Source of the DNA: a virus
Direction: 5' to 3' (one strand)
IMG/VR virus record: IMGVR_UViG_3300018080_000129
Coordinates: 39,501 to 103,500 of that record
DNA length: 64,000 bases
The notes under the pieces are model-generated. The model was not told the origin of the DNA. It did not search any database and was given only the letters and a program-made list of their open reading frames with translations. Both the position numbers and the translations under genes were made by a program. Numbering within the stretch: position 1 is the first letter of the stretch; each line of letters opens with the position of its first letter. Below are positions 37,882-57,585 of the stretch, in pieces.

Positions 37882-37912
37882 TTTTCAATCCACACACTTT
37901 TATAAGTGCGAC
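37882..37912 (-). CRISPR. solitary type I-C-like CRISPR repeat
   Basis: GTCGCACTTATAAAAGTGTGTGGATTGAAAA: 5' GTCGCAC, hairpin, 3' GTGGATTGAAA. Confidence 0.65.
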
Positions 37913-37928
37913 TCTATATTAACGTAAT

Positions 37929-37956
37929 ATTATACAGCAGAGTTCGAACTTTTCAA
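37929..37956 (-). promoter_or_regulatory. sigma70-type promoter
   Basis: TTGAAA-16 nt-TATAAT; predicted start about 10 nt before the repeat. Confidence 0.6.
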
Positions 37957-37976
37957 CAGAAAAAAATCTCTTTTTA

Positions 37977-38867
37977 TCAAATAAACTTCAGCATGTGTTC
38001 TAACCTGTGTGTGTATAGATGCTTATGAATCACATCTTCGTAGCTCTTTTCTGCTAATTTTTCACGCTGCGCTTCGTTCTCAAGATAGAAACGAATTTTT
38101 TCTGCCCATTCCAAAATCACCTGCTCGATGTTTGAACTACTCGGAAGAGTCGTCTCGGCAATGAAATTCGCACCATGAATGTCCTTCAGCCCCTCACGAT
38201 ACGCCTGTATTTGAAAAGCTCCCGTTGCAGGAACATCGAACGTGCGGCACGGACAACCAAAAACCAACGAAGGGTTATATTGGTCTCCATCCTGCATTGG
38301 CGCAATCATTACTCGCGTCTGGTTGTAGAGAAGATTTATCTCGCGGTCGCTCATGCTCATTGAAAAACTGAATCTGCAATTCGGAAAAAAGCGACTGATT
38401 TCCTGAGCAAACCGAACCCTCCAAGGATGTGCGGCTCCAATCATTGCAATGTCATATCGTTTTTTGCATCTCGAAATCTGAAAGTAAGTCATCGGGTCGG
38501 CAGCAAGCGGAAGATACTCAACATGGTCTCCGTAGCCATGCGTTTTTGTATAAGAGAAATGCCTGTCCACCAGTTTCGTAATCCTACCTATTCTCTCTTG
38601 CCAGTGAGGAATCTCGTCATTATGCGTCCAGACAAAGAATTTGCATCGCTTTCTGAACCGTTCGACAAGAGAAGGTGTCAAGCCAAAACCCGCTGAACTG
38701 ATAACTACGTCCAGACCCAAAGGCATTTCTTGCGCTTGAACACCGCCCATAGAACCAATATAAGTCAATTCGTGCCCTTCTACCAGCACCGCATTGCCAA
38801 GAAATTCGGCAACGTAATCGGCACCATTGTTCTCCGTGACACCCGAATACATCACGCCAATTTTCAT
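37977..38867 (-). CDS. GT-B glycosyltransferase (CgeB-like)
   Basis: Start MKIGVMYSG; YLPLAADP, RTFDVPATGAFQI, HLYTHRL. Confidence 0.75.
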   Translation of the reverse strand: MKIGVMYSGVTENNGADYVAEFLGNAVLVEGHELTYIGSMGGVQAQEMPLGLDVVISSAGFGLTPSLVERFRKRCKFFVWTHNDEIPHWQERIGRITKLVDRHFSYTKTHGYGDHVEYLPLAADPMTYFQISRCKKRYDIAMIGAAHPWRVRFAQEISRFFPNCRFSFSMSMSDREINLLYNQTRVMIAPMQDGDQYNPSLVFGCPCRTFDVPATGAFQIQAYREGLKDIHGANFIAETTLPSSSNIEQVILEWAEKIRFYLENEAQREKLAEKSYEDVIHKHLYTHRLEHMLKFI

Positions 38868-39859
38868 AGCAACTCCGAAAGAATCTTGTCTTCCACAAAC
38901 ACATGTTCCATTATCTCGTTCGGCTTGTTCATCACACAGCGGGGGCAATCTTCTATGTCTATCTCCGCAATTGCTCTTTTGTGCTCTTCGCTTCCCCAAA
39001 TGTCCTCCAATGCAAGATGATACAGGTCTCCGAAACGAAGGAACACATCTTGACAGACAATCAGTTCACCTGTTGCTGTCACTACACCATGCAAAGGAGA
39101 AGCTAAGCATTCCCTGTATTGCCTTTCACTCCAGTAACCATCAAACTTCTCTGAAATTGAGAAGAGCTTTACCTTCGTCAGCTTTTTTGCCGCCTCACAA
39201 AGATGATAAGCTGGCTCGATAATAGCCCGTACTTTCTCGTCCTGTCCCTTATCTCGAAAGTAAGCAGGGCGAATGTGAACGAAATCCGCTCCAAGCTCAT
39301 CAGCCAGCTTGCAGAACGAAAAAACATCCTGCCAATTATCATAACTCAAAACAAAGCCGAGTCCAAATGCAAGTCCCTTGCACCACATTCTCACATTGCG
39401 AATGTTTTCGACAATCTTGTGGAAACTATGAGTCCCTGTAATCAACTCGTGTGTTTCGGCGGTTCCGGCATTCAAACTCACACGCACTCGATTGAACATT
39501 GAAGCAATTTCCGGCGTCAATGCAATCCCATTCGTCGATAGCACCTTGAATCCATCAAAATACTTTACGTGAGATAGATAAGGATATAGAGTCGGTTCTC
39601 CTCCCCCGCTGACATGAATCGACTTGATGCCCATTGAATTTGCAGAAGCTATCAATCCCTGAAATACACTATCGCTGAGAGAAAATTCCTTCTTCTGCTC
39701 CTCTTTCATAATACAGAAATTGCAGTTCGAATTGCACCTGTTCGTAGGATAGATATGAAGAACTACAGGCGACTTGAAACGACCTTCCAAAATTGCTCTG
39801 CATTTATCAGCATAGAGCAACGTCTTCCATGAATTGAATTCATCAAACGTGTTGCTCAT
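38864..39859 (-). CDS. radical SAM protein with SPASM/twitch domain
   Basis: CNSNCNFC, SGGGEP, C-terminal C...G.LIVC...CPRC. Confidence 0.9.
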   Translation of the reverse strand: MSNTFDEFNSWKTLLYADKCRAILEGRFKSPVVLHIYPTNRCNSNCNFCIMKEEQKKEFSLSDSVFQGLIASANSMGIKSIHVSGGGEPTLYPYLSHVKYFDGFKVLSTNGIALTPEIASMFNRVRVSLNAGTAETHELITGTHSFHKIVENIRNVRMWCKGLAFGLGFVLSYDNWQDVFSFCKLADELGADFVHIRPAYFRDKGQDEKVRAIIEPAYHLCEAAKKLTKVKLFSISEKFDGYWSERQYRECLASPLHGVVTATGELIVCQDVFLRFGDLYHLALEDIWGSEEHKRAIAEIDIEDCPRCVMNKPNEIMEHVFVEDKILSELL

Positions 39860-42800
39860 TTATCATCCTCTCAAGAAATTCCTTCTGCCCTGAAGTTTCC
39901 GCATTGTAAATCACAGTTGGCAAATGAGTCACAGCCCATCTGACACCAGCATCCAGCCAACGTTTCACGAATTCCCAATCGTGACAATAACCTCCCTCAT
40001 TTCTGTCTTTCCACCAACCGAACCTTTGAATCAGGCTTTTCCTGTGCAGAAGACAAGACGTATCCACTTTGCCAAAAGCTGGCTGCTCAAAAATCAATGG
40101 CTTCCCATCTACTGACATGGAAGAAACAACAAATTCCACATCGTTTGCCTGAGCTATTTGCATAAGGCTTGACAAATGATTCGGCTGCCATTCATTGTCG
40201 TCATCCAGATAAGCTATCCATTGTCCAGCAGCCAGCATGATAGCATAGTTCCTCGGAACTGCGCCACCTGCTCCATGATTCTTTGGCAGATTGAATCGTC
40301 GCTCCGCAGACTCCAATGTTGGACAGTTATCGCCCACCACAACAGTATCAATCGCCAGATAATCCTGTTTTTCGATGGATGCCAGAGCCTTTTCGAGCAG
40401 TTCCTTCCTATTGTATGTCGGCACCACAACGGAAATGAGCGGCCCCAAATAGACCTTCTTGATTCTTTCGTCGTCTCGATGCTCATAGTTCAGGACAGGA
40501 AATCCCTTAGCGTCAGGATGATTCAAAGGAGCATCTTTATCTCCATACTCTCTTGCCTTCTGGTGCCGTCTTTCTTTAGAGTGCAGTTCCAAGATATGCG
40601 TATTCCGAGCATTCATAATAAGGGCCTGAGCATGAGAACCTATCAACTTCTCATGGACTGGAAATACCCATCGTATTTCAGGCTTGCTGCGGAACAAAAA
40701 TGGTTTTGCTACCCACTCCGTTTCCGAGCCGTCATAATTCCTTGACCACAACGGAGCATAATAAATGTCATACGGGGCCTGAAACATTTCCCAAAAATGC
40801 CTGAGCGTGTTCGTGTCAAGACGCTCATCAGGGTCTATCATAACAATCCAGCCAACAGAATCATCACGAAAAATATCAAGTGCCATGTTTCTTCGTTGGC
40901 TATACGATTCAATCTTTCCCTCTTCAACAATTACAGATACACTTAACCCATTGCCGTTCTGCTGCCTCAGCCACTCAACAGTTCCGTCATCCGAACCATT
41001 GTCAAGAAAACAGAAATCATTTGTAATACTCTTGAACTGCTCGATGAACTCCGGCAACGCTTTCTTCTCGTTGTATGTCAAAGCAATCACTCGAACATGA
41101 GAACGCTTTTCACGGTACTTCCTCTTGTTCTCTTTCATAACTTCGAAAACATCCAGTTGATTCTCCTTGAACGAGCTATGTCCTTCGTGATATAGCCAAG
41201 CTCCTCCTATTACACGACATTTCAAGCCAAGATAATGCCGCATCTTGAAACAGAAATCGTCATCCTCAAACGTTGTCAGCCGCGTATCGAAGCCGCCAAT
41301 TTCCTCGAAAGATTGCTTGCGCATCAGCATACAAAAGCCAGAAAGCGTCTCCAAATCGTGCGTTGGTCTGATAACATGCTTTTCAATATTACCTTGCGGA
41401 TATTTGGCCTCATTCGAATAAGGCCCGACCACACCTACATAGGGGTTCTCGACAAGCTCTTTTTCAAGCTTCTCCAGCAACCCTTCTTCCACCACTGTGT
41501 CGCTATTCAGAAGCAACAACAATTCATTACTCGTCTCCATTACGCCACGATTTACACCAGCAGAAAAACCAATGTTCATCTCAAGCTGAATCACCTTATC
41601 AGCTTTCAAGCAGTCAAAATGCTTGCCATTCTGGACAAGTACAACCTCGACATCGGGATAACATTTCTTGAGAGAATCAATGCACTTCTGTGTGTGCTCC
41701 TCTGTATTCCAGTCCAGAATCACAGCAGAAATGCCCTTCTTGAAGGATTCCGTCACAGACTTCTTCTGCGACTGATTCATGCGCTTCGTGTTGAAGTCGA
41801 TAAACTCCTTCTCGTAATTTCTTCTGCCCAATGCCAGATGGTCTTGAATTGACTTATTGCGAGTGAACGTTGTGTTCGACCAACTATCAAGAAAGCGATA
41901 GAGATAGAGCATCCTGTCCAGATGCAGACACTTCGAGTAGAGAAAGAATCTCGCATACACGTCCCAATCATCGGCAATCGGCAAGTTGCGGTTGTAGCCT
42001 CCAAGCCGCTTCAACTCGCTGGCTCGGTAAGCCCGCAAATGATTCGGCCCCACAGTCAGGAACCAGCCGAATTGCTGGAAGTGGTTCGGGCCAAAACGGT
42101 CATAGATGTCTGGATTCATACACTCCAGATACGTCTTTCCCCGATAAACTGTCTCCCGATACCGTGTCTTCCAAAAATCATCCGTGAATTGATGAGGCTT
42201 GCCATCTTGAAAAAATGAGGCGCAGTTCGAATAGACGAAACCGACTTCAGGATTCTCATCAAATGCCTTCCTGACTTCAGCAAGACAATTATCCGTCAGC
42301 ATGTCGTCATGGTCAAGCTCAACAAGATAGACGCCATTCGCAAGGCGCGTAGCAATATCCTTGACGGCTCCTATTTTGCCGCTGTGTTTGATTCTGACAG
42401 GATGCACCCGATGGTCTTCACTGGCAATCTCCATCAATTTTTCCCAAGTGCCATCCGTGCTCTCGTCATCGACAACACTCCACTCCCAATTCGTATAGGA
42501 TTGTTCTTTCAAAGAAACATAAGTATCCCGCAGGAAATCACCCGTATTGTAGCTTCCCGTGTAGACTGTGACAAGCGGATTGGTCTTCTGGTTTGGATGC
42601 TCAGCCCAAAGCAAGGAAGCATAGCAAGATTCTACGGCATTGATTACTTCTTCATCGGTCGCGCCACTCTTGACATGAATCCATCTTTTGCGCAACTCGA
42701 AATCAGCGACGTTGAGCGCACCGGGTATAAAGTCCGAGGAGACAATGACATCCGGCACAAATTGCGCAACATCTGACATGAGACTTGCGATACGATTACA

Positions 42801-42869
42801 GACCCTGACCTCGTAAGGCACATTCCAAGCTTTACCAATGAAATAAACTTTGATTCCCGCTGTAGGCAT
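39843..42869 (-). CDS. multi-domain GT-A (family 2) glycosyltransferase
   Basis: Several GT2 modules: VDDESTD/LDHDD; LLNSD/EDDDF; DNGSDD/IDPDE; VVPTYNR/YLDDD. Confidence 0.9.
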   Translation of the reverse strand: MPTAGIKVYFIGKAWNVPYEVRVCNRIASLMSDVAQFVPDVIVSSDFIPGALNVADFELRKRWIHVKSGATDEEVINAVESCYASLLWAEHPNQKTNPLVTVYTGSYNTGDFLRDTYVSLKEQSYTNWEWSVVDDESTDGTWEKLMEIASEDHRVHPVRIKHSGKIGAVKDIATRLANGVYLVELDHDDMLTDNCLAEVRKAFDENPEVGFVYSNCASFFQDGKPHQFTDDFWKTRYRETVYRGKTYLECMNPDIYDRFGPNHFQQFGWFLTVGPNHLRAYRASELKRLGGYNRNLPIADDWDVYARFFLYSKCLHLDRMLYLYRFLDSWSNTTFTRNKSIQDHLALGRRNYEKEFIDFNTKRMNQSQKKSVTESFKKGISAVILDWNTEEHTQKCIDSLKKCYPDVEVVLVQNGKHFDCLKADKVIQLEMNIGFSAGVNRGVMETSNELLLLLNSDTVVEEGLLEKLEKELVENPYVGVVGPYSNEAKYPQGNIEKHVIRPTHDLETLSGFCMLMRKQSFEEIGGFDTRLTTFEDDDFCFKMRHYLGLKCRVIGGAWLYHEGHSSFKENQLDVFEVMKENKRKYREKRSHVRVIALTYNEKKALPEFIEQFKSITNDFCFLDNGSDDGTVEWLRQQNGNGLSVSVIVEEGKIESYSQRRNMALDIFRDDSVGWIVMIDPDERLDTNTLRHFWEMFQAPYDIYYAPLWSRNYDGSETEWVAKPFLFRSKPEIRWVFPVHEKLIGSHAQALIMNARNTHILELHSKERRHQKAREYGDKDAPLNHPDAKGFPVLNYEHRDDERIKKVYLGPLISVVVPTYNRKELLEKALASIEKQDYLAIDTVVVGDNCPTLESAERRFNLPKNHGAGGAVPRNYAIMLAAGQWIAYLDDDNEWQPNHLSSLMQIAQANDVEFVVSSMSVDGKPLIFEQPAFGKVDTSCLLHRKSLIQRFGWWKDRNEGGYCHDWEFVKRWLDAGVRWAVTHLPTVIYNAETSGQKEFLERMINEQHV

Positions 42870-42938
42870 AACAAAGGCACCTTTCCTCTCAGGTGCCTTA
42901 TTATACCCTGCTTGGCATGATTTTTTGGAAGAAATCTC

Positions 42939-43130
42939 TCAACGCATCATTCCATCAACGGTGCCCTTAACGGCTTTCAGCTTTCCTCCTTCAACTTTCC
43001 ACATAAAGCCAGCAGGAGGCGTAGGCACAACTGCTCCTGAAGGAAGCTTGATTGAAACTGCAATTACATTGCCCTCAAAATTGCTAATCATGTCGATGTC
43101 GGCTTGTTCAGTCGGCACGAACTCAGTCAT
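42939..43130 (-). CDS. hypothetical protein
   Basis: Coupled to the upstream gene. Confidence 0.55.
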   Translation of the reverse strand: MTEFVPTEQADIDMISNFEGNVIAVSIKLPSGAVVPTPPAGFMWKVEGGKLKAVKGTVDGMMR

Positions 43131-44294: not shown

Positions 44295-44306
44295 CTCTCT
44301 ATTTCC

Positions 44307-44969: not shown

Positions 44970-47900
44970 TTAGAAGAACCTAAATGAATGGAGTCTTGCT
45001 TTTGAAGAACCACCAGCATCCTTCATCACCTGAATTTCAAAAATTGCTGCATCTGCTGGCAGGTTCGTCAACGTTGTGTCTTCATAAATTGCCATTACAT
45101 CTGATGTCCAAGAAATACTGGCAATCTCATTGTTATTTGTCACGTCATAAACTCGAAGCGTTACTGTTCCACTTGTTCCATTTCTTGAAGCAATAATGTT
45201 CATCGTAGTTGCTGTAACTTCGTTTGTCCCATTATACCAAAATTCTGCCGCTGCTTGCCATGTTGTAGAATTATACTCAACATAAGCTGTTGATGAAGTA
45301 TAGAACGACGTGCAAAACAAAGCACGTGAGTAAGACAAATCAGTGCCTTGATAACCCTGATTGCCTTGGTTGCCCTGCCAACCCTGATTACCTTGAAATC
45401 CTCTAAAACCTTGCCAACCTTGGAATCCTCTAAAACCTTGCCAACCCTGATTTCCTTGAGGGCCAACAATTCCTTGCCAACCTTGATTCCCCTGATAACC
45501 AATATCACCCTGCCAACCTTGCGCTCCCTGATTTCCAGTCTCACCTACTTCGCCTTGGAAACCTTGCCAACCTTGATTTCCTTGAGAACCCGTATCGCCT
45601 ATATTACCTTGCGGCCCTTGCCAGCCCTGATTACCCTGTACGCCATCAGAGCCTATGTCACCTTGTGGCCCCTGTACGCCATCGGCTCCCACGTCACCCT
45701 GCCAACCCTGATTTCCTTGGACACCAGTGTCACCGATGTCACCCTGATTTCCCTGATAACCAATGTCACCCTGATTTCCTTGAACGCCAGTATCACCAAT
45801 GTCACCTTGCGGCCCTTGTACTCCTATTTCTCCTTGTAAACCTTGCCAGCCTTGATTTCCTTGATTACCCTGAACACCATCAGAACCTATGTCACCCTGT
45901 GGCCCTTGAACACCGTCAACCCCAATGTCGCCTTGTGCGCCTTGATAACCAATATCTCCTTGATTACCTTGATTGCCTTGGACACCGATTTCGCCTACAT
46001 CTCCTTGGAATCCTTGGTCGCCTTGATAACCTATGTCACCCTGCCAACCCTGATTGCCTTGAACCCCCGTATTACCAGTGTCACCCTGAAGTCCTTGCCA
46101 ACCTTGTGGCCCCTGAACACCATCAACACCGATGTCACCTTGCCAACCCTGAACACCTTGTACGCCTGTTTCACCTACATCGCCCTGATTTCCTTGGCGT
46201 CCCTGATTCCCTTGCGTTCCATCAATACCTTGGTCGCCCTGCCAACCCTGATTACCCTGAAAACCAACATCTCCCTGATTTCCTTGGACACCAGTTTCGC
46301 CTATGTCACCTTGCGGCCCTTGAACGCCGTCAACACCAATGTCACCCTGTGGCCCTTGGACGCCAGTATCACCTATATCACCTTGTGGCCCTTGTGTGCC
46401 CGTGTCACCAGTGTCACCCTGAAGCCCTTGCCAACCCTGTGCGCCTTGCAAACCAGTATCGCCAACATTACCCTGATTGCCTTGCGCACCCTGAACACCT
46501 GTATCGCCAGTGTTTCCTACATTTCCTTGTGGGCCTTGAACACCCGTATCACCAGTATTTCCTACTTCACCTTGTGGGCCTTGTACTCCCTGAACACCAT
46601 CAGAACCAATATTGCCTTGCCAACCTTGACTGCCTTGATTTCCTTGTACGCCGTCAGAGCCGATGTCACCTTGTGGGCCTTGAACACCGTCAACACCGAT
46701 GTCTCCCTGCCAGCCCTGATTGCCTTGTACGCCGTCAGCACCAACGTCTCCTTGGAATCCTTGGTCGCCTTGATAACCTATATCACCTTGCCAACCCTGA
46801 TTTCCTTGAACACCCGTATCACCAGTATCACCCTGTAAACCTTGTGGGCCTTGGAAACCAATATCGCCCTGATTGCCTTGGACACCATCTTGTCCTACAT
46901 CACCCTGCCAACCTTGAACACCTTGGAAACCAGTATCGCCCACATCGCCCTGATTTCCCTGTACGCCTTGAACACCGTCAAGACCAATCGCACCTTGAAA
47001 TCCTTGACGACCTTGATTTCCTTGTGGGCCTATATCTCCTATGTCACCCTGATTGCCCTGAACACCGTCATTACCCTGCGGCCCCTGAACACCGTCAGCA
47101 CCGATGTCACCTTGGAATCCTTGTTCGCCTTGCCATCCTTGTGGGCCTTGCCATCCTTGCGGTGAGTAACCCTGTGGCCCCAAGTAACCCTGATTGCCCT
47201 GATAACCTTGAGAGCCAACATCACCCTGAAAACCTTGCGTTCCATCAATACCGGCAGGCCCTTGAGAACCCTGATTTCCCGTCCCTTCAATACCTTGTGG
47301 GCCTATGTCACCCTGCCAGCCCTGATTGCCTTGGACACCCGTATCACCAGTATCACCCTGTAAACCTTGTGGGCCTTGGAAACCAGTATCACCAACATCC
47401 CCCTGATTACCTTGGACACCCTGAATCCCTGTGTCCCCTACCGCACCTTGACTTCCTTGGCGTCCTTGATTTCCTTGAACTCCATCTTGTCCTACATCAC
47501 CCTGCCAACCTTGAACACCTTGTACGCCGTCAGCACCAATATTTCCTTGTGGCCCTTGAACTCCATCAGCACCAACATCACCCTGTGGCCCTTGAACACC
47601 GTCAATACCGATGTCTCCCTGTGGCCCTTGAACCCCGTCAATACCGATGTCACCTTGAGGCCCTTGAACTCCATCGGCACCGATGTCTCCCTGTGGCCCC
47701 TGAACACCGTCAATACCGATGTCTCCCTGTGGCCCCTGAACACCGTCAATACCGATGTCACCTTGATTTCCCTGTGCGCCCTGAACGCCAATTCCAATTG
47801 CGCCTTGCCAACCTTGCCAACCCTGATTACCCTGAACACCATCCTGTCCTACGTCTCCCTGCCAACCTTGAGCACCTTGAAGACCAGCAGAGCCTACATC

Positions 47901-50036
47901 GCCCTGATTTCCTTGGCGTCCCTGATTCCCTTGCGTTCCATCAATACCTTGGTCGCCCTGCCAACCTTGAACACCCTGTACGCCATCAGAGCCTATGTCA
48001 CCTTGTGGCCCCTGTACGCCATCGGCTCCCACGTCACCCTGTGGCCCTTGAACACCGTCAGAACCCGTGTTTCCTTGAAATCCTTGGTCGCCCTGCCAAC
48101 CTTGAACACCCTGTACGCCATCAGAGCCTATGTCACCTTGATTTCCTTGGAAACCAGTCTCTCCTTGCACACCCTGAACACCAGTATCGCCAATGCTACC
48201 TTGAAAACCTTGACGGCCTTGCGCACCTTGGTTTCCAGTAACACCTACAGCACCTTGATTACCTTGCGCCCCTTGTACGCCATCAAAGCCAATGTCACCT
48301 TGGAATCCTTGTGCCCCTTGTACGCCGTCAAAACCTATATCTCCCTGATTGCCTTGGTTGCCCTGAACACCATCAATGCCTTGGTCGCCCTGCCAGCCCT
48401 GTGCGCCCTGAACACCTGTTCCCTGATAGCCCTGTGCTCCTTGGAAACCAATATCACCCGCGACACCCTGATTTCCTTGAACACCATCGACGCCAATATC
48501 TCCCTGCCAACCTTGAACTCCTTGCGCTCCAGTATCGCCAATGGCTCCCTGATTACCCTGACGACCTTGAAAACCATCGGCACCATCTGCACCAATATCT
48601 CCCTGATTACCCTGATTTCCCTGAACACCATCGACACCAATGTCTCCTTGTGGGCCTTGAACACCATCAGAACCGATGTCTCCCTGTACGCCCTGAACAC
48701 CATCGGCTCCGATGTTTCCTTGTGGGCCTTGAACACCATCGGCTCCGATGTCTCCTTGTGGGCCTTGCCTTCCTTGCGCTCCTGTGTCACCCGCGTTACC
48801 CTGAAATCCCTGACGACCCTGATTGCCTTGAACTCCGTCGGCTCCGATATTCCCCTGCGGGCCTTGCCAACCTTGAGGAGAGTATCCTTGTGGCCCTAAG
48901 TAACCCTGATTGCCCTGATAACCTTGTGAACCAACATCGCCCTGAGCACCCTGCGTTCCATCAATACCGGCAGGCCCTTGAGAACCTTGCTGTCCTATGC
49001 CAACATTACCCTGATTTCCCTGTGGGCCAAGGTCGCCAACATCTCCTTGATTTCCCTGTACCCCATCATTACCTTGCGGGCCGACATCTCCAAGACCCTG
49101 CCAACCTTGAGCACCTTGAACTCCATCAACGCCTATATCTCCTTGCGGGCCTTGAACACCGTCAACACCGATGATTCCTTGATTGCCCTGCCAACCTTGA
49201 TTTCCTTGAGCACCTGTCTGCCCGACGTTTCCTTGGCTCCCCTGCCATCCCTGAACACCCGTGTCGCCAATGGCTCCCTGATTGCCTTGCCGTCCCTGAT
49301 TTCCCTGAACACCATCCGCTCCAGTGTTTCCTTGCGGGCCTTGAACGCCATCGACGCCAACCGGCCCCTGCCAACCCTGATTTCCCTGCGCTCCGAGAGT
49401 GCCCGCCCCATAATCGTACCAGATAACATCCAGAAAATGATTCCAATCGAGGTTTTTGAACATCCTCGATACAGCAACAAAAGCAAGGTCGATGTCGGCA
49501 GTCGAAGTGAAATTGTAAGCGGATTCAACACCGCCATTCCACGTGTACCAGCCTATCGTGTAAGTGCCAGCAGCGAAACTCAAACGACCGTAAACCGCAT
49601 TACCGCTGCCGTCGGTTATCGGGTCGCCGGAATCATGGTCTCGAATGAAAATACGATAAGCTCTGGTCGAGTCAACGATGACGCCTTCAACCGTCGAGGA
49701 ACCTTGACCATTGTTATGATTCGTGATGCCTTTAATCGCACCATCAAACACGGTCGTGCTGGTTCCCGCTCCTATCGTGACGTTCTCAAAAGCGGCTTGA
49801 TGCAACGCCTCCATCAGGAACTTGTCAGCCAGTTCCTTCATGGAAAGTTCGGCAGGGTCATACCAATCGGGTTCTCCAATGAGATTTTTCAGGAGTGTGC
49901 GCAAGACATTCAAGTCGCCTTCAATATTGACTTGGCCTTCCGCGACAGCCACAGTATGAACGGCTGCAATCGTGTCATCGTAAGTTGCCGAAGCCGCAAC
50001 CTGAATTGCCTGTCTGAGAATGCTCGTATCACCCAT
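44970..50036 (-). CDS. collagen-like fibre protein (1688 aa)
   Basis: About 1350 aa of near-continuous Gly-X-Y (GxQ alternating with GD[IVT]) between globular N- and C-terminal domains. Confidence 0.9.
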   Translation of the reverse strand: MGDTSILRQAIQVAASATYDDTIAAVHTVAVAEGQVNIEGDLNVLRTLLKNLIGEPDWYDPAELSMKELADKFLMEALHQAAFENVTIGAGTSTTVFDGAIKGITNHNNGQGSSTVEGVIVDSTRAYRIFIRDHDSGDPITDGSGNAVYGRLSFAAGTYTIGWYTWNGGVESAYNFTSTADIDLAFVAVSRMFKNLDWNHFLDVIWYDYGAGTLGAQGNQGWQGPVGVDGVQGPQGNTGADGVQGNQGRQGNQGAIGDTGVQGWQGSQGNVGQTGAQGNQGWQGNQGIIGVDGVQGPQGDIGVDGVQGAQGWQGLGDVGPQGNDGVQGNQGDVGDLGPQGNQGNVGIGQQGSQGPAGIDGTQGAQGDVGSQGYQGNQGYLGPQGYSPQGWQGPQGNIGADGVQGNQGRQGFQGNAGDTGAQGRQGPQGDIGADGVQGPQGNIGADGVQGVQGDIGSDGVQGPQGDIGVDGVQGNQGNQGDIGADGADGFQGRQGNQGAIGDTGAQGVQGWQGDIGVDGVQGNQGVAGDIGFQGAQGYQGTGVQGAQGWQGDQGIDGVQGNQGNQGDIGFDGVQGAQGFQGDIGFDGVQGAQGNQGAVGVTGNQGAQGRQGFQGSIGDTGVQGVQGETGFQGNQGDIGSDGVQGVQGWQGDQGFQGNTGSDGVQGPQGDVGADGVQGPQGDIGSDGVQGVQGWQGDQGIDGTQGNQGRQGNQGDVGSAGLQGAQGWQGDVGQDGVQGNQGWQGWQGAIGIGVQGAQGNQGDIGIDGVQGPQGDIGIDGVQGPQGDIGADGVQGPQGDIGIDGVQGPQGDIGIDGVQGPQGDVGADGVQGPQGNIGADGVQGVQGWQGDVGQDGVQGNQGRQGSQGAVGDTGIQGVQGNQGDVGDTGFQGPQGLQGDTGDTGVQGNQGWQGDIGPQGIEGTGNQGSQGPAGIDGTQGFQGDVGSQGYQGNQGYLGPQGYSPQGWQGPQGWQGEQGFQGDIGADGVQGPQGNDGVQGNQGDIGDIGPQGNQGRQGFQGAIGLDGVQGVQGNQGDVGDTGFQGVQGWQGDVGQDGVQGNQGDIGFQGPQGLQGDTGDTGVQGNQGWQGDIGYQGDQGFQGDVGADGVQGNQGWQGDIGVDGVQGPQGDIGSDGVQGNQGSQGWQGNIGSDGVQGVQGPQGEVGNTGDTGVQGPQGNVGNTGDTGVQGAQGNQGNVGDTGLQGAQGWQGLQGDTGDTGTQGPQGDIGDTGVQGPQGDIGVDGVQGPQGDIGETGVQGNQGDVGFQGNQGWQGDQGIDGTQGNQGRQGNQGDVGETGVQGVQGWQGDIGVDGVQGPQGWQGLQGDTGNTGVQGNQGWQGDIGYQGDQGFQGDVGEIGVQGNQGNQGDIGYQGAQGDIGVDGVQGPQGDIGSDGVQGNQGNQGWQGLQGEIGVQGPQGDIGDTGVQGNQGDIGYQGNQGDIGDTGVQGNQGWQGDVGADGVQGPQGDIGSDGVQGNQGWQGPQGNIGDTGSQGNQGWQGFQGEVGETGNQGAQGWQGDIGYQGNQGWQGIVGPQGNQGWQGFRGFQGWQGFRGFQGNQGWQGNQGNQGYQGTDLSYSRALFCTSFYTSSTAYVEYNSTTWQAAAEFWYNGTNEVTATTMNIIASRNGTSGTVTLRVYDVTNNNEIASISWTSDVMAIYEDTTLTNLPADAAIFEIQVMKDAGGSSKARLHSFRFF
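45345..49400 (-). repeat. collagen Gly-X-Y coding repeat with internal block duplications
   Basis: 9-bp periodicity; the block GSQGPAGIDGTQG...GYLGPQGYSPQGWQGPQG appears twice (about 47140-47280 and 48860-49000). Confidence 0.9.
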
Positions 50037-51350: not shown

Positions 51351-51353
51351 AGC

Positions 51354-51680: not shown

Positions 51681-51697
51681 TTTTCTCTCCTTTCAAA

Positions 51698-51774
51698 TGG
51701 TAGCGGGAGTCGGATTCGAACCGACGACCTTGAGGTTATGGGCCTCACGAGCTACCAGACTGCTCCATCCCGCA
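51698..51774 (-). tRNA. tRNA-fMet(CAU)
   Basis: TGCGGGATGGAGCAGTCTGGTAGCTCGTGAGGCCCATAACCTCAAGGTCGTCGGTTCGAATCCGACTCCCGCTACCA; 1:72 mismatch, initiator-type D arm. Confidence 0.92.
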
Positions 51775-51788
51775 CCATTCCAATCAAA

Positions 51789-51862
51789 TCTCTCACTGGC
51801 CGAAGATAACCATCTCAGGCGTGTGAGGAGGACGAAAGAGAGGAGTATCAACCAGTGAGAGA
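51789..51862 (-). ncRNA. stem-loop RNA with pyrimidine-rich loop
   Basis: TCTCTCACTGGTTGA...TCGGCCAGTGAGAGA 15-bp closing stem. Confidence 0.5.
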
Positions 51863-51873
51863 AAGTAAAAGAA

Positions 51874-51969
51874 GATTCAGTACCGATGGTCGAAGAGAGA
51901 ACATACGTGGTAAACCACGTCTCAATATAGATTGAATTGAAGTAACTCTCTTCTGGAGCGTACTGACTC
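51874..51969 (-). ncRNA. Y-RNA-like motif, copy with two small hairpins
   Basis: TCAGTAC-GCTCCA-GAAGAGAG-TTACTTC...CTCTCTTC-GACCATCG-GTACTGA. Confidence 0.7.
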
Positions 51970-52005
51970 CTTTCTTTTCGCTTCACCACACTTTCACTTT
52001 TCTTT

Positions 52006-52037
52006 CTTTCAACCCACACTTTCGCAAGGAAAGTGAA
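52006..52037 (-). CRISPR. solitary type I-C-like CRISPR repeat
   Basis: TTCACTTTCCTTGCGAAAGTGTGGGTTGAAAG: 32 nt, 7-bp hairpin, 3' TGGGTTGAAAG tail. Confidence 0.45.
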
Positions 52038-52043
52038 AAGAAA

Positions 52044-52180
52044 GCCGATACCAATAGTCGCAAAGAGAAATTTTACGTGTGCTATCTTTTACACTACTCC
52101 CCATCAAAGTTGGGGAGGCAGGAGTTGCACCTGCACCACGTCCGTATGATGGAAGTAACTCTTCGCTGGAGCGTATCGGT
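52044..52180 (-). ncRNA. YrlA-like Y RNA with circularly permuted tRNA domain
   Basis: Shared scaffold enclosing T arm GCAGG-TGCAACT-CCTGC, loop-closed acceptor stem CTCCCCA/TGGGGAG, TA linker and D arm GTG...CAC. Confidence 0.8.
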
Positions 52181-52201
52181 TTCCTGTGCTATAAAAGAAC
52201 T

Positions 52202-52439
52202 TTCGATACCTAAGGTCGAATAGAGGATTACGCTACACAGCGTAGTGCCGTCTCTCCAGCAATGTCACCGTTCTTTCACGGTCTGTCGTCGGATACTTTG
52301 ACCCGCAGTCAGCGAAACTTTCCTCGCAGCCATCATGGGTTTTAGCCCATGAGCAAAGCCCGTCTTTCCGAGCATGTCAGGAGTTCCACTCCTTTTCACA
52401 TAATCAATGTGAAGTATCTCTACTCTGGAGCGTATCGAA
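52202..52439 (-). ncRNA. Y-RNA-like motif, copy enclosing nine hairpins
   Basis: TTCGATAC-GCTCCA-GAGTAGAG-ATACTTC...CTCTATTC-GACCTTAG-GTATCGAA. Confidence 0.7.
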
Positions 52440-52489
52440 GCGTTCTTTGTTTTCAAAGAGCGTTTATCCCTCTATCTCTTGTACGTCAT

Positions 52490-52518
52490 ATTATACCATT
52501 TTCGACAGACTTTTTCAA
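52490..52518 (-). promoter_or_regulatory. sigma70-type promoter of the RNA operon
   Basis: TTGAAA-17 nt-TATAAT with extended -10 TG. Confidence 0.75.
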
Positions 52519-52526
52519 GTTTTTTT

Positions 52527-52557
52527 CAAAAAAAACCCCGACTGTGTGTCGGGGTCA
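52527..52557 (-). terminator. intrinsic terminator
   Basis: GACCCCGAC-ACACA-GTCGGGGTT followed by a T run. Confidence 0.8.
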
Positions 52558-52641
52558 TGCTCGGCTTTAGGGGTGGGAACCGAGCAATTGAGAAGGGAGA
52601 AGAGGGTAAAACGCTTTGCTAAAACATGTTATGATTCCTTT

Positions 52642-53706
52642 TCAAGATACAAAACTGACAACTTTAAGCAAGGAAGAACAATCTGCCTTGCCACTAACCC
52701 TGCCACTCTCCCATTGAATAGCATCTGGAAACATCTTCTTCAAACCAAGAAAAACCTTCTTGTTTATCTCGAAGAAGCTCTCATCAGGATACTGCTCATG
52801 GAAAAGTTTCAACTTGGCCGTCTTCTTTGGATGTCTCCAGCCGGTAATCTCGACGTATAGTTCAAAGTCAGGCAAGTAAAGGTCGGGCAAGTATGAATCT
52901 ACTGTTTCCCCCGCTTGCCGCAAATAGAACTTTCTCGGTTCGTAGAGATACTTGATGCCAAAATATTTCAGAAGGCGACAAACATCGGCCTCCCAAGTGG
53001 AGCGAACGAAATGACCAATGTCTAAACGATAGCCTGACTTTCCAACTCCAGAACCCTTAGCTGGCTTGTGACCAACTATCTTTTTCGCTTGCGCTGCTAC
53101 CTTCTTGCTTGTCTCCTTCGTTAAACCTTTATTCCAAGGGCCACCATGCTTTTCAGCATTAACTTTGCCACCTTGAGAAGACCAACGCTTTCGCTGCTCC
53201 TTAGTATATCTCCTGTTAATTGTTTTTCTTGCTTTTCGAGCAGACTCCTTTGTAGTTTTCGGCAAAGAAAGAGCCTGCTGTTTCAACCGTCCAGCATATT
53301 CAGAGTCGTTCTTGATTCTTTCACGTTTTGCCTTGGATATTCTCTCAGCCCAATCCTTGCTCTCTTTCGGGCACTTCTTGTGCCACAACGAGATTTTCTT
53401 ACCTCGCTGCTTTTTCTCCTTCGCGGAGAGTCCAGCATGATACTCCGTCATATACTGGCATCGAATTTCCGCAAGACCCTTATTCATACACTCCGAGGAA
53501 CAATATGTCCTTCCTTTTCTTACCTCACAAGGACGAACCTGAACCATCTTGCCACAATATTTGCAAGTGAATGTCGCTCTCTTAATCTTCGCCAAGCCAG
53601 TGCATTTGAAAGAACAATACTTGCCAAGACCCTTCGCAACTTTGTAACGCAGGGCCTCAAATTCTTTACCGCAATAATGACAGTTGACTTTGACAAGACC
53701 TGACAT
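52642..53706 (-). CDS. putative homing endonuclease (Zn-finger repeats, NUMOD3-like, PD-(D/E)XK)
   Basis: CxxC...YCSxxC twice, PWNKGLTKET, RSTWEA...YEP...YLPDLYL...YVEITG. Confidence 0.75.
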   Translation of the reverse strand: MSGLVKVNCHYCGKEFEALRYKVAKGLGKYCSFKCTGLAKIKRATFTCKYCGKMVQVRPCEVRKGRTYCSSECMNKGLAEIRCQYMTEYHAGLSAKEKKQRGKKISLWHKKCPKESKDWAERISKAKRERIKNDSEYAGRLKQQALSLPKTTKESARKARKTINRRYTKEQRKRWSSQGGKVNAEKHGGPWNKGLTKETSKKVAAQAKKIVGHKPAKGSGVGKSGYRLDIGHFVRSTWEADVCRLLKYFGIKYLYEPRKFYLRQAGETVDSYLPDLYLPDFELYVEITGWRHPKKTAKLKLFHEQYPDESFFEINKKVFLGLKKMFPDAIQWESGRVSGKADCSSLLKVVSFVS

Positions 53707-53721
53707 ATTTTTATCCTGAAA

Positions 53722-54159
53722 CTACTCCTTAATTTTAGGAGTATGAGTCTCAAGCCACTTCTTTGACCTCCACATTGTCGTCATGTAAATTCTGTCGGCC
53801 AGCGACCCGCACACGGCTCCAACATCGTCAAAATGAGGTTTAAGTTTCTTCATACACTCCGTAACCTTATGTTCCGCATTTCCTGTCAGTGTTTTCCAGA
53901 ATTTCACCAGACTTTTCCTCGTCCAGCCCTTCGGCAATTTGCTCCAAGGCTTCTTCGCAGTCCTCACTATCTCATCAATCAACGCATCCTCCTGAGCTTG
54001 AATGATGATGGAAGCTCTCAATCCCTTCCATTTCTTCTGCCGAATTTTCTCAGCGCAGTCAGGGCAGAAAAGCTCAACCTCGTCAGCCGTCAAAAGTCTG
54101 TCAGGGTCGGCCAGAATCAAGTCCTTGGCAATGTCTACGAGTTCCTCAGTTACATTCAT
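53722..54159 (-). CDS. hypothetical protein with N-terminal amphipathic leader
   Basis: MNVTEELVDIAKDLILA; CPDC. Confidence 0.7.
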   Translation of the reverse strand: MNVTEELVDIAKDLILADPDRLLTADEVELFCPDCAEKIRQKKWKGLRASIIIQAQEDALIDEIVRTAKKPWSKLPKGWTRKSLVKFWKTLTGNAEHKVTECMKKLKPHFDDVGAVCGSLADRIYMTTMWRSKKWLETHTPKIKE

Positions 54160-54160
54160 C

Positions 54161-54502
54161 TCATGTCTCCTGACCATTTTTCAATATCAGAAATGGCGTA
54201 TCGTTCAAGGCCACTTCCAATGTTTCCTTGATGGCCTCTTTCAGATTCCAAGCGACCTCTATCGTAACTTCTGCTTTGAAGTTTACGCTATTATCTCTCT
54301 CGTCATAGCCAGCATTCCGAATTCCGTTGACCGTGACTTGAATGCTGTCCATCTCAAGAAGCAGGTCAAAATTAGTGTTGACATAAAGTTGAGCCTGATT
54401 CTTGACCAGCCTGTGAACCAACATCTTCAACATGTTGTCGGGAAGTTCGCCACCCGTTTCAGGAATAGTACCGTTCACTTCCCTCTTCAGTTTTACGTTC
54501 AT
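54161..54502 (-). CDS. hypothetical protein
   Basis: ORF within the operon. Confidence 0.6.
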   Translation of the reverse strand: MNVKLKREVNGTIPETGGELPDNMLKMLVHRLVKNQAQLYVNTNFDLLLEMDSIQVTVNGIRNAGYDERDNSVNFKAEVTIEVAWNLKEAIKETLEVALNDTPFLILKNGQET

Positions 54503-54788
54503 TTGCTAATTTCCTAATCTCTTTCATAGGATTGTATTTTCCTTCGAGTTCAAGGTGGTACTTCTCATCGCGAATAAGCCAGAAATCCTCAGCAATGTAA
54601 GCAAATACCTTGCTGAGCTTCTCGGCTATGTGCTTTGTTATTCTCTCCCTGCCCGTCATAATGGCGCGAAGCTTGCTTGGTTTCATGCCAAGTCTTTTTG
54701 CCAGCATTCTTCCTGAAATCCTCTTGGCTTTCATCTCCTCCTGAATGGTTTCGCCCGGAGGAGATACGTATGTCGGCCTCGCTGCCAT
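54459..54788 (-). CDS. HigA-family XRE HTH (antitoxin-like)
   Basis: SPPGETIQEEM...LAKRLGM...IMTGRERIT..IA.KLSKVF....FWL....KY.L. Confidence 0.8.
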   Translation of the reverse strand: MAARPTYVSPPGETIQEEMKAKRISGRMLAKRLGMKPSKLRAIMTGRERITKHIAEKLSKVFAYIAEDFWLIRDEKYHLELEGKYNPMKEIRKLANERKTEEGSERYYS

Positions 54789-54817
54789 TGTTTGATTCTC
54801 CTATACTAATATAAGCT

Positions 54818-55180
54818 TTATAAAAGATTTGTCAATACTTTTTCCATTCGATTCCAATCGCAAGGCTTGGGTACAACGGATAGAACATTCTTAATCACCT
54901 TTATCCTGCTCTTGTTCCTTTCGTTGACAAATGCAGTAACAAAAACGATGGGAGTCTGATTGCCCTGCCGCCTCAGGTCTTCAGCAAAAGTAATCCCGTC
55001 CTTACCCGGCATATTGATGTCCAGAGAAATCAAGTCAAAACTCGAATCCTCAAGCTTCTTTTCCGCTTCGCTCACAGAATTGACCTCGACTGCCTCCATG
55101 CCAAGAGTTCCAAACTGGTAAGATAATACCTCCGTAATCGAAGGCTCATCATCCACAACAAGAACTTTCTTTGCATCCAT
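54818..55180 (-). CDS. single-domain response regulator
   Basis: VLVVDDE, DLISLDINMPGKDG, IVFVTA, KP. Confidence 0.9.
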   Translation of the reverse strand: MDAKKVLVVDDEPSITEVLSYQFGTLGMEAVEVNSVSEAEKKLEDSSFDLISLDINMPGKDGITFAEDLRRQGNQTPIVFVTAFVNERNKSRIKVIKNVLSVVPKPCDWNRMEKVLTNLL

Positions 55181-55308
55181 GAAAAGCCCCTAACAGTGAA
55201 AGGAAGGGCCTCTCCCTCTACTATTATACACAGACGATAAAGGAAATGTGAAAAGAAAAAGGGAAGCCATTCAAAGCTTCCCAAGGTATGCTTTTAGAAA
55301 AGTAGTGC

Positions 55309-56184
55309 TTAAAAAATTAGAGCACCACTCTTCTGCCAGTCATAGCGCAAGTGATTATCAGGGCAGAAAATCAACTGCCGAATCTCTCCATCCTTGCTCG
55401 GATAGGTCAGGCAATTGTTCAGGCAGACATTCTGGTCGTTCAAGTCATAGACGACGGCTCCATGCGGCAATCGAAGCAACTCCGTCCCTTTCTTGCACAG
55501 AAACTCCTCCAGTCCGGCTTCCGCAGAACAAACCTTATGCTTGTCCACCCATTGTTTGACATGCTGACCTTTCCATGTTTCTTCCGGCTCCCCAAGTTCG
55601 CGCACTGTCAACTGGTCAACCTTCAAATCCCTACAAACCTCAACAAGCTTCTTCAGGCGGTCAACATTGTCCACATGGCCCTTGCAAATGACACAGGAAA
55701 CGCGAACCATGAAACTATGCTGCTTGAGAATTCTGCATGATTCGTTCCAGTTGAATTTCGGTTTGTTGTCCGTCATCAAACGAGCATTGTTCTCAGGCTC
55801 GATGTCTCCTATCGAGAGACACACAGAAGTCAGACCAAAATATTTCCAAGTCTCCAGATAACGATTCTGGAAATCATCATCCTCGAAAACAATGCCATTG
55901 GTCTGCAACTCGATAAGAGGAAACTCATGCTGGCGCAAGACAGAAAGAAATGTCGTAATCTGCTGTGGAAAAAGAGTAGGCTCACCTTTGCCGGTGAAAA
56001 GGGCGGTTGTGATACCATGTGCTCTTGAATACCTACAAGCCGCTTCGAATGCTCTCCAATCGACAACTGGAAGCTCTTTCTCCATGCCAAAGCTTGGCGT
56101 CATCTTCGAGACGCAATAAGGGCATCTGGCGTTACAAGCGCGTGAACCTGTCACAATGGAAAGAGTTGTCGCCTCAATTTTCAT
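55309..56184 (-). CDS. radical SAM protein
   Basis: CNARCPYC, TGKGEP, ELQTNG. Confidence 0.88.
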   Translation of the reverse strand: MKIEATTLSIVTGSRACNARCPYCVSKMTPSFGMEKELPVVDWRAFEAACRYSRAHGITTALFTGKGEPTLFPQQITTFLSVLRQHEFPLIELQTNGIVFEDDDFQNRYLETWKYFGLTSVCLSIGDIEPENNARLMTDNKPKFNWNESCRILKQHSFMVRVSCVICKGHVDNVDRLKKLVEVCRDLKVDQLTVRELGEPEETWKGQHVKQWVDKHKVCSAEAGLEEFLCKKGTELLRLPHGAVVYDLNDQNVCLNNCLTYPSKDGEIRQLIFCPDNHLRYDWQKSGALIF

Positions 56185-56196
56185 TTGCTTCTGCCT

Positions 56197-56484
56197 TTAC
56201 TTCACAAAGCCAATTTTGCCTTTTGGTGCCTCTGGAGTATTCCAAACTCGATGCTCATCCAATTGTGCCTTCATCGGTTTGCGAAGGTCATAAACCTCCA
56301 TGACCCGCTGCATATTCTTGCCATTATATTCTTTTACTTTCTGAAGGCATTCCGCATCGGTAGCCACGTAAGTAGGATAGTCTTCGTGGTCAAAACCATC
56401 ACAGACCACAATCAGGTATGCCTGTTTCTCTTCCTTGCCTCTTTCAAACCAGCCTTGAATATCTTCTCTTGTTGTAGCCATCAT
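56197..56484 (-). CDS. hypothetical protein
   Basis: ORF with RBS. Confidence 0.7.
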   Translation of the reverse strand: MMATTREDIQGWFERGKEEKQAYLIVVCDGFDHEDYPTYVATDAECLQKVKEYNGKNMQRVMEVYDLRKPMKAQLDEHRVWNTPEAPKGKIGFVK

Positions 56485-56505
56485 ATTGTCCTTGTAAGGA
56501 AAACT

Positions 56506-57141
56506 CTAAATCGCAGCCAACAATTTAGCCACTGAGAACCTTGTATTCTTGTTCACCCTGATTCTTACAACCTTCCAGCCTTTTGATTCTGCAAATTCAT
56601 CCTTCTCTGCATCTTTCTGTGCCATAACAGTCCACTCATGGTCTTTGCCGTCAAACTCCAAAAACAATTTCCTATCTGGCAAAGCTAAATCAAAGACATA
56701 TCGACCAAGAGGATACTCTGGCTCGAATCTTTCTCCTCTTGATAGAAAAAATTTCTTCAACTCTTCATACTTCCAAGACTCCCTTGTTCTTAAACCCTTC
56801 GCAATGACAGCTATATCGTTAATTGCTCCAACATTCTGAGAACCCATCTCACGAGCTTTCTCCCTGCGATATTTGGTCACACTACCCGCAGAAGCACACC
56901 CTCTCGAACAAAACGTAGCCTCTGTTTTGCCCGTTCTTGTCTTAAAAGATTTGTCGCAGTAAGGACATGTCTTCTCTATCTCTCTTGTCCTGTTCTCGCG
57001 ATTATCATTACCGTACTTAGCAGAGCAAGAACGAGAACAGAAAAATCTTTCCCTACCTTTTCTTACTTGCCGGTTATATTCTGCCTTGGAAAGAAGAAAA
57101 GGCTTAGAACAATAGCTGCATTCAAGAGGAACACTACTCAT
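56506..57141 (-). CDS. Zn-finger + DUF559/Vsr-like endonuclease
   Basis: CxxC...FCSRxC twice; YVFDLA...LEFDG..H....D..KD......GWKVVRI. Confidence 0.8.
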   Translation of the reverse strand: MSSVPLECSYCSKPFLLSKAEYNRQVRKGRERFFCSRSCSAKYGNDNRENRTREIEKTCPYCDKSFKTRTGKTEATFCSRGCASAGSVTKYRREKAREMGSQNVGAINDIAVIAKGLRTRESWKYEELKKFFLSRGERFEPEYPLGRYVFDLALPDRKLFLEFDGKDHEWTVMAQKDAEKDEFAESKGWKVVRIRVNKNTRFSVAKLLAAI

Positions 57142-57159
57142 CAATTTCTCCAAAGAAAA

Positions 57160-57515
57160 TGGTGGAGGCGGCGAGGAGTCGCACCTCGCGTCCAGTGGTG
57201 CTCTCGATAGGGCGTCTACACGCTTATCCAGTTGATTCTATATCTCGGCTCATCTGGCAAGCCTCAGGCGGCTGTTTACCCGCCACGTCAGGCCGTCTTT
57301 CCAGCCTGCCAACCTGTCTTTCCAAGCTGCCAGCCCTTGTGTCGTACCCTATTCCCGCTTACTAAGGACGAATCTCAACGGTTTTGGGGCTGCCTAAGCA
57401 GCGATTCTGTAGGAGTTGCCAAGTAAATGGCATAGTCGGCTTTTTACGAGGCCAACCGACCAACCTCGACGTGCAGCCATTCTCGATACGCATCCTGTCG
57501 ATACTACGCGCCCCC
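57160..57515 (-). ncRNA. ssrA: tmRNA
   Basis: 5' GGGGGCG...TCGAC; 3' GCGAGG-TGCGACT-CCTCGC-CGCCTCCACCA with G3:U70; internal tag frame GNSYRIAA* at 57394..57420; 356 nt. Confidence 0.92.
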
Positions 57516-57522
57516 AATTGTC

Positions 57523-57551
57523 GTTTCAATCCACGCCCTCACACGGGCGAC
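57523..57551 (-). CRISPR. solitary type I-C-like CRISPR repeat
   Basis: GTCGCCCGTGTGAGGGCGTGGATTGAAAC (29 nt), ending 7 nt before the tmRNA. Confidence 0.65.
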
Positions 57552-57585
57552 TAACGTTTACTCTCACGCGCCTTAAAAAGGAAAA

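Follow-up and report, generated by a model that had tools for sequence, protein, structure and literature searches.

In type I-C CRISPR systems, Cas5c reportedly reads the repeat hairpin together with the single-stranded flank on its 3' side, cleaves at the stem base and retains an 11-nucleotide (nt) 5' handle, observations that are attributed to Nam and colleagues and to Garside and colleagues in 2012. Viral solitary repeat units (SRUs), first listed by Faure et al. 2019 as cited in Camara-Wilpert et al. 2023 (PMC10651486), include the type I-C RNA anti-CRISPR (Racr) RacrIC1, which is co-transcribed with acrIC5. Such units bind Cas proteins and block interference, and they often sit just after a promoter (PMC10651486). 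Here we describe four SRUs on one phage contig, the IMG/VR virus record IMGVR_UViG_3300018080_000129, a single linear record of 103.5 kilobases (kb). Positions 39501-103500 of the record form the window, a stretch of 64,000 nt, and the positions given below are those of the window unless the contig or another locus is named. All four are on the transcribed strand. Each resembles a type I-C repeat, lies in intergenic viral DNA and has no tie to other repeats or to cas genes, which are the features by which a viral SRU is recognised.

Three of the units lie within the window, all on the minus strand. SRU1 (37882-37912, GTCGCACTTATAAAAGTGTGTGGATTGAAAA(G)) is I-C-like, with a stem of 6 base pairs (bp) closed by a G.U pair. 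SRU2 (52006-52037, TTCACTTTCCTTGCGAAAGTGTGGGTTGAAAG) is a diverged I-C-like copy with a 7-bp stem, found between two Y-like RNAs, while SRU3 (57523-57551, GTCGCCCGTGTGAGGGCGTGGATTGAAAC) is a near-natural I-C repeat with a stem of 4-5 bp. The fourth, SRU4 (TTCACACTCTGCATGAGTGTGTGGGATGAAAG), is at contig positions 34997-35028 (L002:14997-15028), also on the minus strand and 4.5 kb ahead of the window start, so that the copies are spread across 62 kb. An earlier reading of the window, made from its letters and open reading frames (the sequence-only reading), had quoted the first three, and its sequences are exact as reverse complements of the plus strand.

We compared the units with natural repeats by means of a covariance model, R1, which was built from 43 aligned natural I-C repeats and searched against both strands of the whole contig. 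A scan of viral contigs supplied 88 different I-C repeats, and the set used for position comparisons held 116. The natural pattern in the model consists of 5' GTCGC, a stem of 6-7 bp and 3' GTGGATTGAAA[C/T]. R1 picked out SRU3 (33.6 bits, E 1.8e-6) and SRU1 (25.3 bits, E 3.5e-4), and there was no other significant match on either strand of the contig. SRU3 is the same as a variant repeat copy at L111:424-455 at 29 of 29 aligned positions, and agrees at 28 aligned positions both with the commoner repeat of the L111 array and with the L112 repeat; its exact runs in common with natural repeats reach approximately 25 nt. Scanning bacterial genomes with the core of SRU3 returned real arrays, one with the repeat GTCGCCCTCCGTGTGAGGGCGTGGATTGAAAT in a metagenome-assembled genome (MAG) of the Acutalibacteraceae, which holds about 80 repeats, and a second with the natural repeat GTCGCTCCCCGTGTG(A/G)GGGCGTGGATTGAAAC. 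Among the CRISPR families of Rfam only SRU3 gave a match, to CRISPR-DR9 at 21.4 bits, which is below the gathering score of 45.

The other units stand further from the natural repeats. SRU1 shares 26-27 of 32-33 positions with them and SRU2 and SRU4 share 24-25 of 32-33, while SRU2 and SRU4 agree with each other at 25 of 32 positions and each shares 23 with SRU1. SRU2 and SRU4 have a common frame, TTCAC-stem-loop-stem-GTGTGGGWTGAAAGAAA, and a derived junction, ..AGTGTGTGG.., is common to SRU1, SRU2 and SRU4. The handle variant of SRU2, GTGGGTTGAAAG, is also present in the natural I-C array L242. SRU1 and SRU3 derive from I-C repeats beyond reasonable doubt, while a common stock with them, followed by divergence, is probable for SRU2 and SRU4. 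The description of the three window copies as I-C-like solitary repeats in the transcribed orientation is firm for SRU1 and SRU3 and plausible for SRU2, as it is for SRU4. The published SRUFinder rule accepts a unit when BLAST against its own repeat database gives 41.1 bits or more; SRU3 might pass it, given its exact runs, and SRU1, SRU2 and SRU4 would probably fail.

The hairpin is retained in spite of differing stem sequences, as had been proposed from the letters of the window. In the natural I-C register 97.7% of the cells pair, three of the six pairs change on both sides and no shuffle equalled the score. Where the natural repeats close with a G-C pair, SRU1 has G.U, and SRU2 and SRU4 have A-U, a series that looks like compensatory change after capture; taken with the changes on both sides of the stem, these differences suggest that the copies kept evolving under a pairing constraint once they had been captured. 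In SRU3 a 3-nt deletion in the 5' arm shortens the stem relative to natural repeats, and its predicted fold is a shifted stem of 4-5 bp. In every copy conservation is highest in the 3' arm and the handle. We counted the exact motif GTGGRTTGAAA three times, always on the minus strand, against an expectation of 0.16, and none of 100 shuffles gave three occurrences.

Partial copies accompany two of the units. The 3' arm and the start of the handle of SRU2 recur at 51979-51995 (minus strand, GAAAGTGTGGTGAAGCG), 10 nt past SRU2 and without a hairpin, and this copy includes an exact 10-nt recurrence of GAAAGTGTGG. A possible half-repeat remnant lies at 57556-57572 (minus strand, GGCGCGTGAGAGTAAAC), 4 nt ahead of SRU3. 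The latter had been called a degenerate half-repeat, a term that overstates a weak resemblance of 10-12 nt (only about 8 of 10 positions plus AAAC are shared with SRU3, and no model match was reported); the clearer partial copy is the one that trails SRU2.

Three of the four units are placed just ahead of non-coding RNAs (ncRNAs). A Y-like motif directly adjoins SRU1, another follows SRU2 after 36 nt, and SRU3 ends 7 nt ahead of a transfer-messenger RNA (tmRNA) gene at 57160-57515 (minus strand; Rfam RF00023, 88.4 bits, E 6e-33), all as the sequence-only reading had measured. Its wider statement that each repeat is directly 5' of an ncRNA holds for these three and fails for the whole set, since SRU4 precedes an open reading frame (ORF) of 111 amino acids (aa), here ORF111.

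The surroundings of SRU1 point to a short transcript. A predicted sigma-70-type promoter, TTGAAA-16-TATAAT (37929-37956, minus strand; a consensus match only, 11/12), ends 16 nt ahead of SRU1 and would start transcription about 10 nt before it. Motif and terminator scans place a Y-like RNA with its motif at 37869-37878, a further hairpin and a terminator downstream, at 37735-37881 (minus strand); the strong intrinsic terminator, at 37735-37765 plus a T run, stands after the Y-like RNA and before the Ro60/TROVE gene. That gene (35886-37685, minus strand; Pfam TROVE E 1.3e-24, vWA_Ro60 E 1.9e-11) directly follows the unit of SRU1 and Y RNA. The predicted transcript of approximately 190 nt has a fold z of -5.5, and in it the SRU1 hairpin forms on its own. 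In one predicted fold (37842-37893 with 37795-37815, minus strand) the terminal stem of the Y-like RNA is prolonged into the repeat, as its 3' tail, UUUC..UUCAU, forms pairs with the SRU1 handle, GUGGA..GAAA.

SRU2 belongs to an ncRNA cluster at 51698-52518 (minus strand), which comprises a promoter at 52490-52518 (11/12 consensus with TG in the promoter scan), three Y-like RNAs with motifs at 52425-52434, 52166-52175 and 51953-51962, and a transfer RNA (tRNA) gene, tRNA-Met, at 51698-51774 (minus strand), found by both ARAGORN and the Rfam tRNA model. SRU3 is flanked by the tmRNA and by a putative ncRNA region. Between a promoter-like site (approximately 57855-57885) and SRU3 there is a non-coding stretch at 57586-57815 (minus strand), and if this is an ncRNA, SRU3 would sit between two ncRNAs of one precursor. 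SRU4 lies between an 890-aa coiled-coil gene of structural type and ORF111, and its handle runs into the ribosome-binding region of ORF111. We also considered the TTGAAA of the handles as a -35 box, and rejected it: a consensus match exists only at SRU3, where the start would fall within the tmRNA, and the promoter scan found no usable -10 element after the TTGAAA of SRU1, SRU2 or SRU4.

None of the SRUs has a second repeat at spacer distance (about 33-37 nt); the R1 matches are isolated, and their flanks hold only abutting partial copies. Searches of the contig for Cas5d, Csd1 and DevR (cas5, cas8c and cas7) found none of them, although the negative for Csd1 is weak, as its control search was blank in every control genome. 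With that limit on Csd1, the earlier claim of no array and no cas gene extends from the window to the contig for these three families. A scan of metagenome contigs for arrays ending in GTGGGTTGAAAG gave a single I-C array, most of what it returned being repeats of 36-37 nt from other types.

We also compared phages with related Ro60 genes. Homologues of the Ro60 protein number in the hundreds on phage-like contigs, which reach about 340 kb, the closest TROVE relatives being P0002, with 90% identity on a 3.7-kb contig, and P0003, with 61%. A search of viral contigs with the single TROVE protein returned nothing and an alignment-based search was needed; it gave the 15 IMG/VR loci compared here (L043-L057), in which Ro60 identity is 44-53%. 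A tmRNA lies 1-3 kb upstream of the Ro60 gene in 10 of the 12 relatives scanned with Rfam, most of which also have a tRNA, and the Y motif is found upstream of the Ro60 gene in 9 of the 15 loci. The relatives keep a tight module of tmRNA, Y-like RNA, tRNA and Ro60; in L056, for instance, the tmRNA is at 2405-2758, the tRNA at 3829-3903 and TROVE at 4001-5785. The distance between tmRNA and Ro60 is about 20 kb in the present phage against the 1-3 kb of the relatives. Two of the loci have a Twister-P5 ribozyme above the Rfam gathering score upstream of the ncRNA module (L049:128-216, 48.6 bits; L045:1400-1476, 38.0 bits).

R1 gave no matches at E <= 10 across the 15 related loci, and in the whole records of four relatives (140-253 kb, one of them complete) there was no significant R1 match and no Cas5d, Csd1 or DevR; a fifth related record, searched for Cas5d only, had no match. 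No repeat-like hairpin precedes the tmRNAs of the relatives. A motif, GTTCTTTGA, stands 9-20 nt before the tmRNA in 5 of the 10 relatives checked (L048, L049, L054, L044 and L045) and is missing before the tmRNA of the present phage, where SRU3 sits. Pattern searches of viral contigs, with the Y motif and with the handle plus the Y motif, gave chance or coding matches only. Two candidates for a conserved SRU remnant, TGGATTGA, which L051 has ahead of a Y RNA, and TTGAATTGAAAC of L054, were rejected, as neither has a hairpin or a model match. The record of L054 contains a weak I-C-like element, GTCGCTCCATAAGGGCGCGTGAGTTGAAAT, at L269:1501-1530 (minus strand; R1 16.2 bits, E 0.16), which is intergenic and, much as SRU4 does, stands just ahead of an ORF (178 aa), directly before its GGAGG and ATG.

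Because the related loci carry the module without any such repeat, the repeats are, on this comparison, lineage-specific additions to a conserved RNA module and not part of ncRNA biogenesis. The sequence-only reading had named a lack of conservation in related phages as one of the outcomes that would tell against it, and at 44-53% Ro60 identity there is indeed no conservation. This counts against an intrinsic role in RNA processing, not against a host-specific anti-CRISPR addition.

Two options had been put forward at the outset: that Cas5c serves as a processing nuclease for phage ncRNAs, or that the units are Racr-ncRNA fusions that sequester Cascade subunits. The Racr type is the better supported, by analogy with RacrIC1 (PMC10651486), and the first option finds no support. 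We rank a Racr-type decoy first because the 3' arm and handle are kept, the orientation is right, the transcripts are expected to be abundant and RacrIC1 provides a precedent. By that analogy, we see about an even chance that the SRUs are Racr-like RNA decoys for host Cas5c, made within abundant ncRNA precursors. The source would be bacterial type I-C CRISPR repeats, captured by a very large sediment phage whose host would possess a type I-C system. Each unit retains the parts that Cas5c reads, namely the hairpin, in particular its 3' arm, as well as the single-stranded 3' flank ..GTGG(A/G)(T/A)TGAAA. Carried along in abundant ncRNA precursors and so produced at high levels, the units would be freed or exposed as RNase P and other enzymes mature the neighbouring RNAs. 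The cut of RNase P at the 5' end of the tmRNA, for example, would leave a leader ending in SRU3 plus 7 nt, which may be a minimal Cas5c ligand that is unable to grow a Cas7 filament. The SRUs could then hold host Cas5c, perhaps with Cas8c and Cas7, in dead-end complexes, leaving fewer working Cascade complexes and so inhibiting interference.

Several findings weigh against the decoy reading. Scored alone with R1, SRU2 has 12.2 bits for an in-register match along its whole length, and SRU4 10.5 bits for one limited to model positions 4-24; neither is significant, both being at roughly E 1-4 contig-wide, and the handles of both depart from the consensus. The spacers of the natural arrays that we fetched have no match to the phage, and those arrays come from unrelated settings. 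The contig amounts to approximately 31% of the phage genome by CheckV completeness, so that a phage-borne cas operon that uses the repeats is possible beyond it. ORF111 gave no match in Pfam, PHROG or PDB and its Atlas model is poor, and no recognisable acr gene was seen nearby. In the predicted folds, moreover, the handles of SRU2, SRU3 and SRU4 are partly paired to sequence upstream of them and the SRU1 handle to the tail of the Y RNA, and such pairing with the flanks could hinder the binding of Cas5c.

The repeats could instead be neutral relics, either scars of recombination with host arrays or captured repeats that have decayed and are tolerated in non-coding DNA. We consider this rather unlikely. 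The truncation of SRU3, the divergence of SRU2 and SRU4, the partial half-copies beside SRU2 and perhaps SRU3, and the related phages without repeats would all suit such an origin, but four of four copies are in the sense orientation within presumably transcribed intergenic sequence, the hairpin has been preserved through changes on both sides, and it is the 3' arm and handle read by Cas5c that are best kept in every copy.

Processing or sensing that depends on Cas5c seems to us distinctly unlikely. Here Cas5c of the host or the phage would cut at the base of the hairpin, and the 11-nt handle would stay attached to the Y RNA, to the precursor of the tmRNA or to the leader of ORF111, which would set the 5' end or the stability of the RNA or switch its translation. 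Its strength lies in position: three SRUs are 0-36 nt ahead of structured ncRNAs, the SRU4 handle overlaps the ribosome-binding region of ORF111, and the weak element at L269:1501-1530 is likewise just before the GGAGG site of an ORF. The small share of the genome that is assembled leaves room for a phage Cas5c, yet Cas5d, Csd1 and DevR are neither on the contig nor in the four related records. The related phages also manage the tmRNA, Y RNA, tRNA and Ro60 module without repeats, RNase P would still have 18 nt to trim from the tmRNA after a Cas5c cut, and reliance on a host immune enzyme would confine the phage to I-C hosts. SRU4, which precedes a protein gene and not an ncRNA, speaks against Cas5c as an ncRNA processor, and a sensing role for SRU4 retains some probability. 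A related proposal joins processing to capture, in that the precursors would be cleaved by host Cas5c, which would remain bound to the 11-nt handle of the Ro60-bound Y-like RNA, the tmRNA leader or the mRNA leader. With such functional fusions the phage might trap single-copy Cascade subunits on bulky ribonucleoproteins, or might sense CRISPR status and adjust ncRNA maturation and ORF111 translation; we hold this to be improbable.

A lone repeat might also turn the phage sequence that follows it into a guide, resembling a CRISPR RNA, for host I-C Cascade against insert-free sibling phages or a host locus. The protospacer adjacent motif of type I-C is TTC, and a TTC is found inside the conserved GTTCTTTGA of the relatives, 9-13 nt ahead of their tmRNAs, near the place of SRU3 in the present phage, but the SRU3 junction is not exactly in line with it. 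Every copy lacks a downstream repeat or other 3' boundary at spacer distance, RNase P would cut 7 nt past SRU3 and leave no guide, and a tightly folded Y-like RNA follows SRU1, all of which make this one-repeat guide very unlikely. Finally, that these are ordinary phage stem-loops (stabilisers or RNase sites) resembling I-C repeats by chance, mainly SRU2 and SRU4 with their low scores and with a TTGAAA that doubles as the -35 hexamer of the phage's predicted promoters, is extremely improbable when SRU3 and SRU1 are each significant alone, SRU3 equals the natural L111 variant at every aligned position, SRU2 aligns at full length in the I-C register and shares ..AGTGTGTGG.. with SRU1 as SRU4 does, and the TTGAAA of SRU1, SRU2 and SRU4 has no usable -10 element after it.

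The contig is a piece of a huge phage with a large RNA toolkit, as we conclude because it carries tail-fibre genes, tRNAs, the tmRNA, the Ro60/TROVE gene and Y-like motifs. Among public runs, only a sediment metagenome contains the record nearly in full, and contigs from sediment and seawater runs gave no usable coverage of the repeat sites in relatives. The minus strand holds nearly all of the long ORFs and all of the RNA genes. There are 29 tRNAs upstream of the window and one within it, and a motif search found six copies of the Y-RNA-like motif, TACGCTCCAG-N6-8-TACTTC, on the contig. Collagen-like and other tail-fibre genes are present; the collagen-repeat tail-fibre protein (1688 aa, 44970-50036, minus strand) is encoded in a region of locally higher GC, and contigs from other samples join this region in many ways, as expected of a repetitive variable gene. 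Nuclease-like genes stand beside the ncRNA clusters, a Zn-finger/DUF559 gene at 56506-57153 (minus strand), which starts 7 nt past the tmRNA, and a resolvase/endonuclease-like gene at 52642-53706 (minus strand). Because the N-terminal part of each matches the HNH-endonuclease family phrog_1271, the two may be homing-type elements. The window further encodes a stand-alone response-regulator receiver domain (54818-55180, minus strand), two radical SAM proteins (38864-39859 and 55309-56184, both minus strand) and a 1008-aa protein with several matches to GT2 glycosyltransferases (39843-42869, minus strand).

If the SRUs are active, RNA anti-CRISPRs of this sort, one shortened and others diverged, would largely have been missed by the published similarity searches, and huge phages would be making their strongly expressed operons for tmRNA, Y RNA and tRNA serve as carriers of decoy RNAs. 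Should that be so, and should many huge phages prove to have lone repeats in their tRNA/tmRNA islands, RNase P-processed operons would be a general means of delivering anti-CRISPR RNA. The parts that are constant across the four copies, the 3' arm and the handle, offer a natural map of what Cas5c may need. There is practical value too, in that type I-C interference assays already exist in which the four short RNAs can be put straight to the test.

Like RacrIC1 and other viral SRUs (PMC10651486), the present units are single intergenic look-alikes of an I-C repeat that keep the hairpin and handle and have no array or cas genes. SRU1 directly follows a predicted promoter, and co-transcription with neighbours is expected, as for RacrIC1 with acrIC5. 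Unlike the published SRUs, there are four copies of two sub-kinds on one contig, three of which lie in ncRNA units (Y-like RNA/Ro60, Y RNA/tRNA and tmRNA) and not beside acr genes; one is 3 nt short and two have diverged beyond the reach of a plain similarity search. With natural I-C arrays, such as those of the Acutalibacteraceae MAG (L112/L113), L111 and L242, the units share the 5' GTCGC (SRU1 and SRU3), the stem register and the 3' GTGGATTGAAAC or GTGGGTTGAAAG, but they are dispersed over 62 kb and have no spacers, no neighbouring repeat at 33-37 nt, no leader and no cas genes.

Cracrs and crlRNA mimics (bioRxiv 10.1101/2024.10.29.618823), together with virus mini-arrays, are likewise phage CRISPR-like RNAs that exploit host Cas proteins, and I-C examples exist. 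In those systems, however, a repeat-flanked spacer has its match in the promoter of cas or creT or in a rival virus, whereas the SRUs here have no second repeat at spacer distance. The Ro60 (Rsr) and Y RNA systems and the tmRNA/tRNA islands of huge phages (PMC7162821; PMC12135203) provide the carrier transcripts of the SRUs, in a module that is conserved in related phages; they are unrelated to CRISPR, and the repeats have been added only in the present lineage. Solitary I-C repeats in phages and their anti-CRISPR role are already published, and what is less usual here is the presence of four copies of two sub-kinds, their embedding in Y RNA/Ro60, tRNA and tmRNA units, and forms that the search rule would probably miss.

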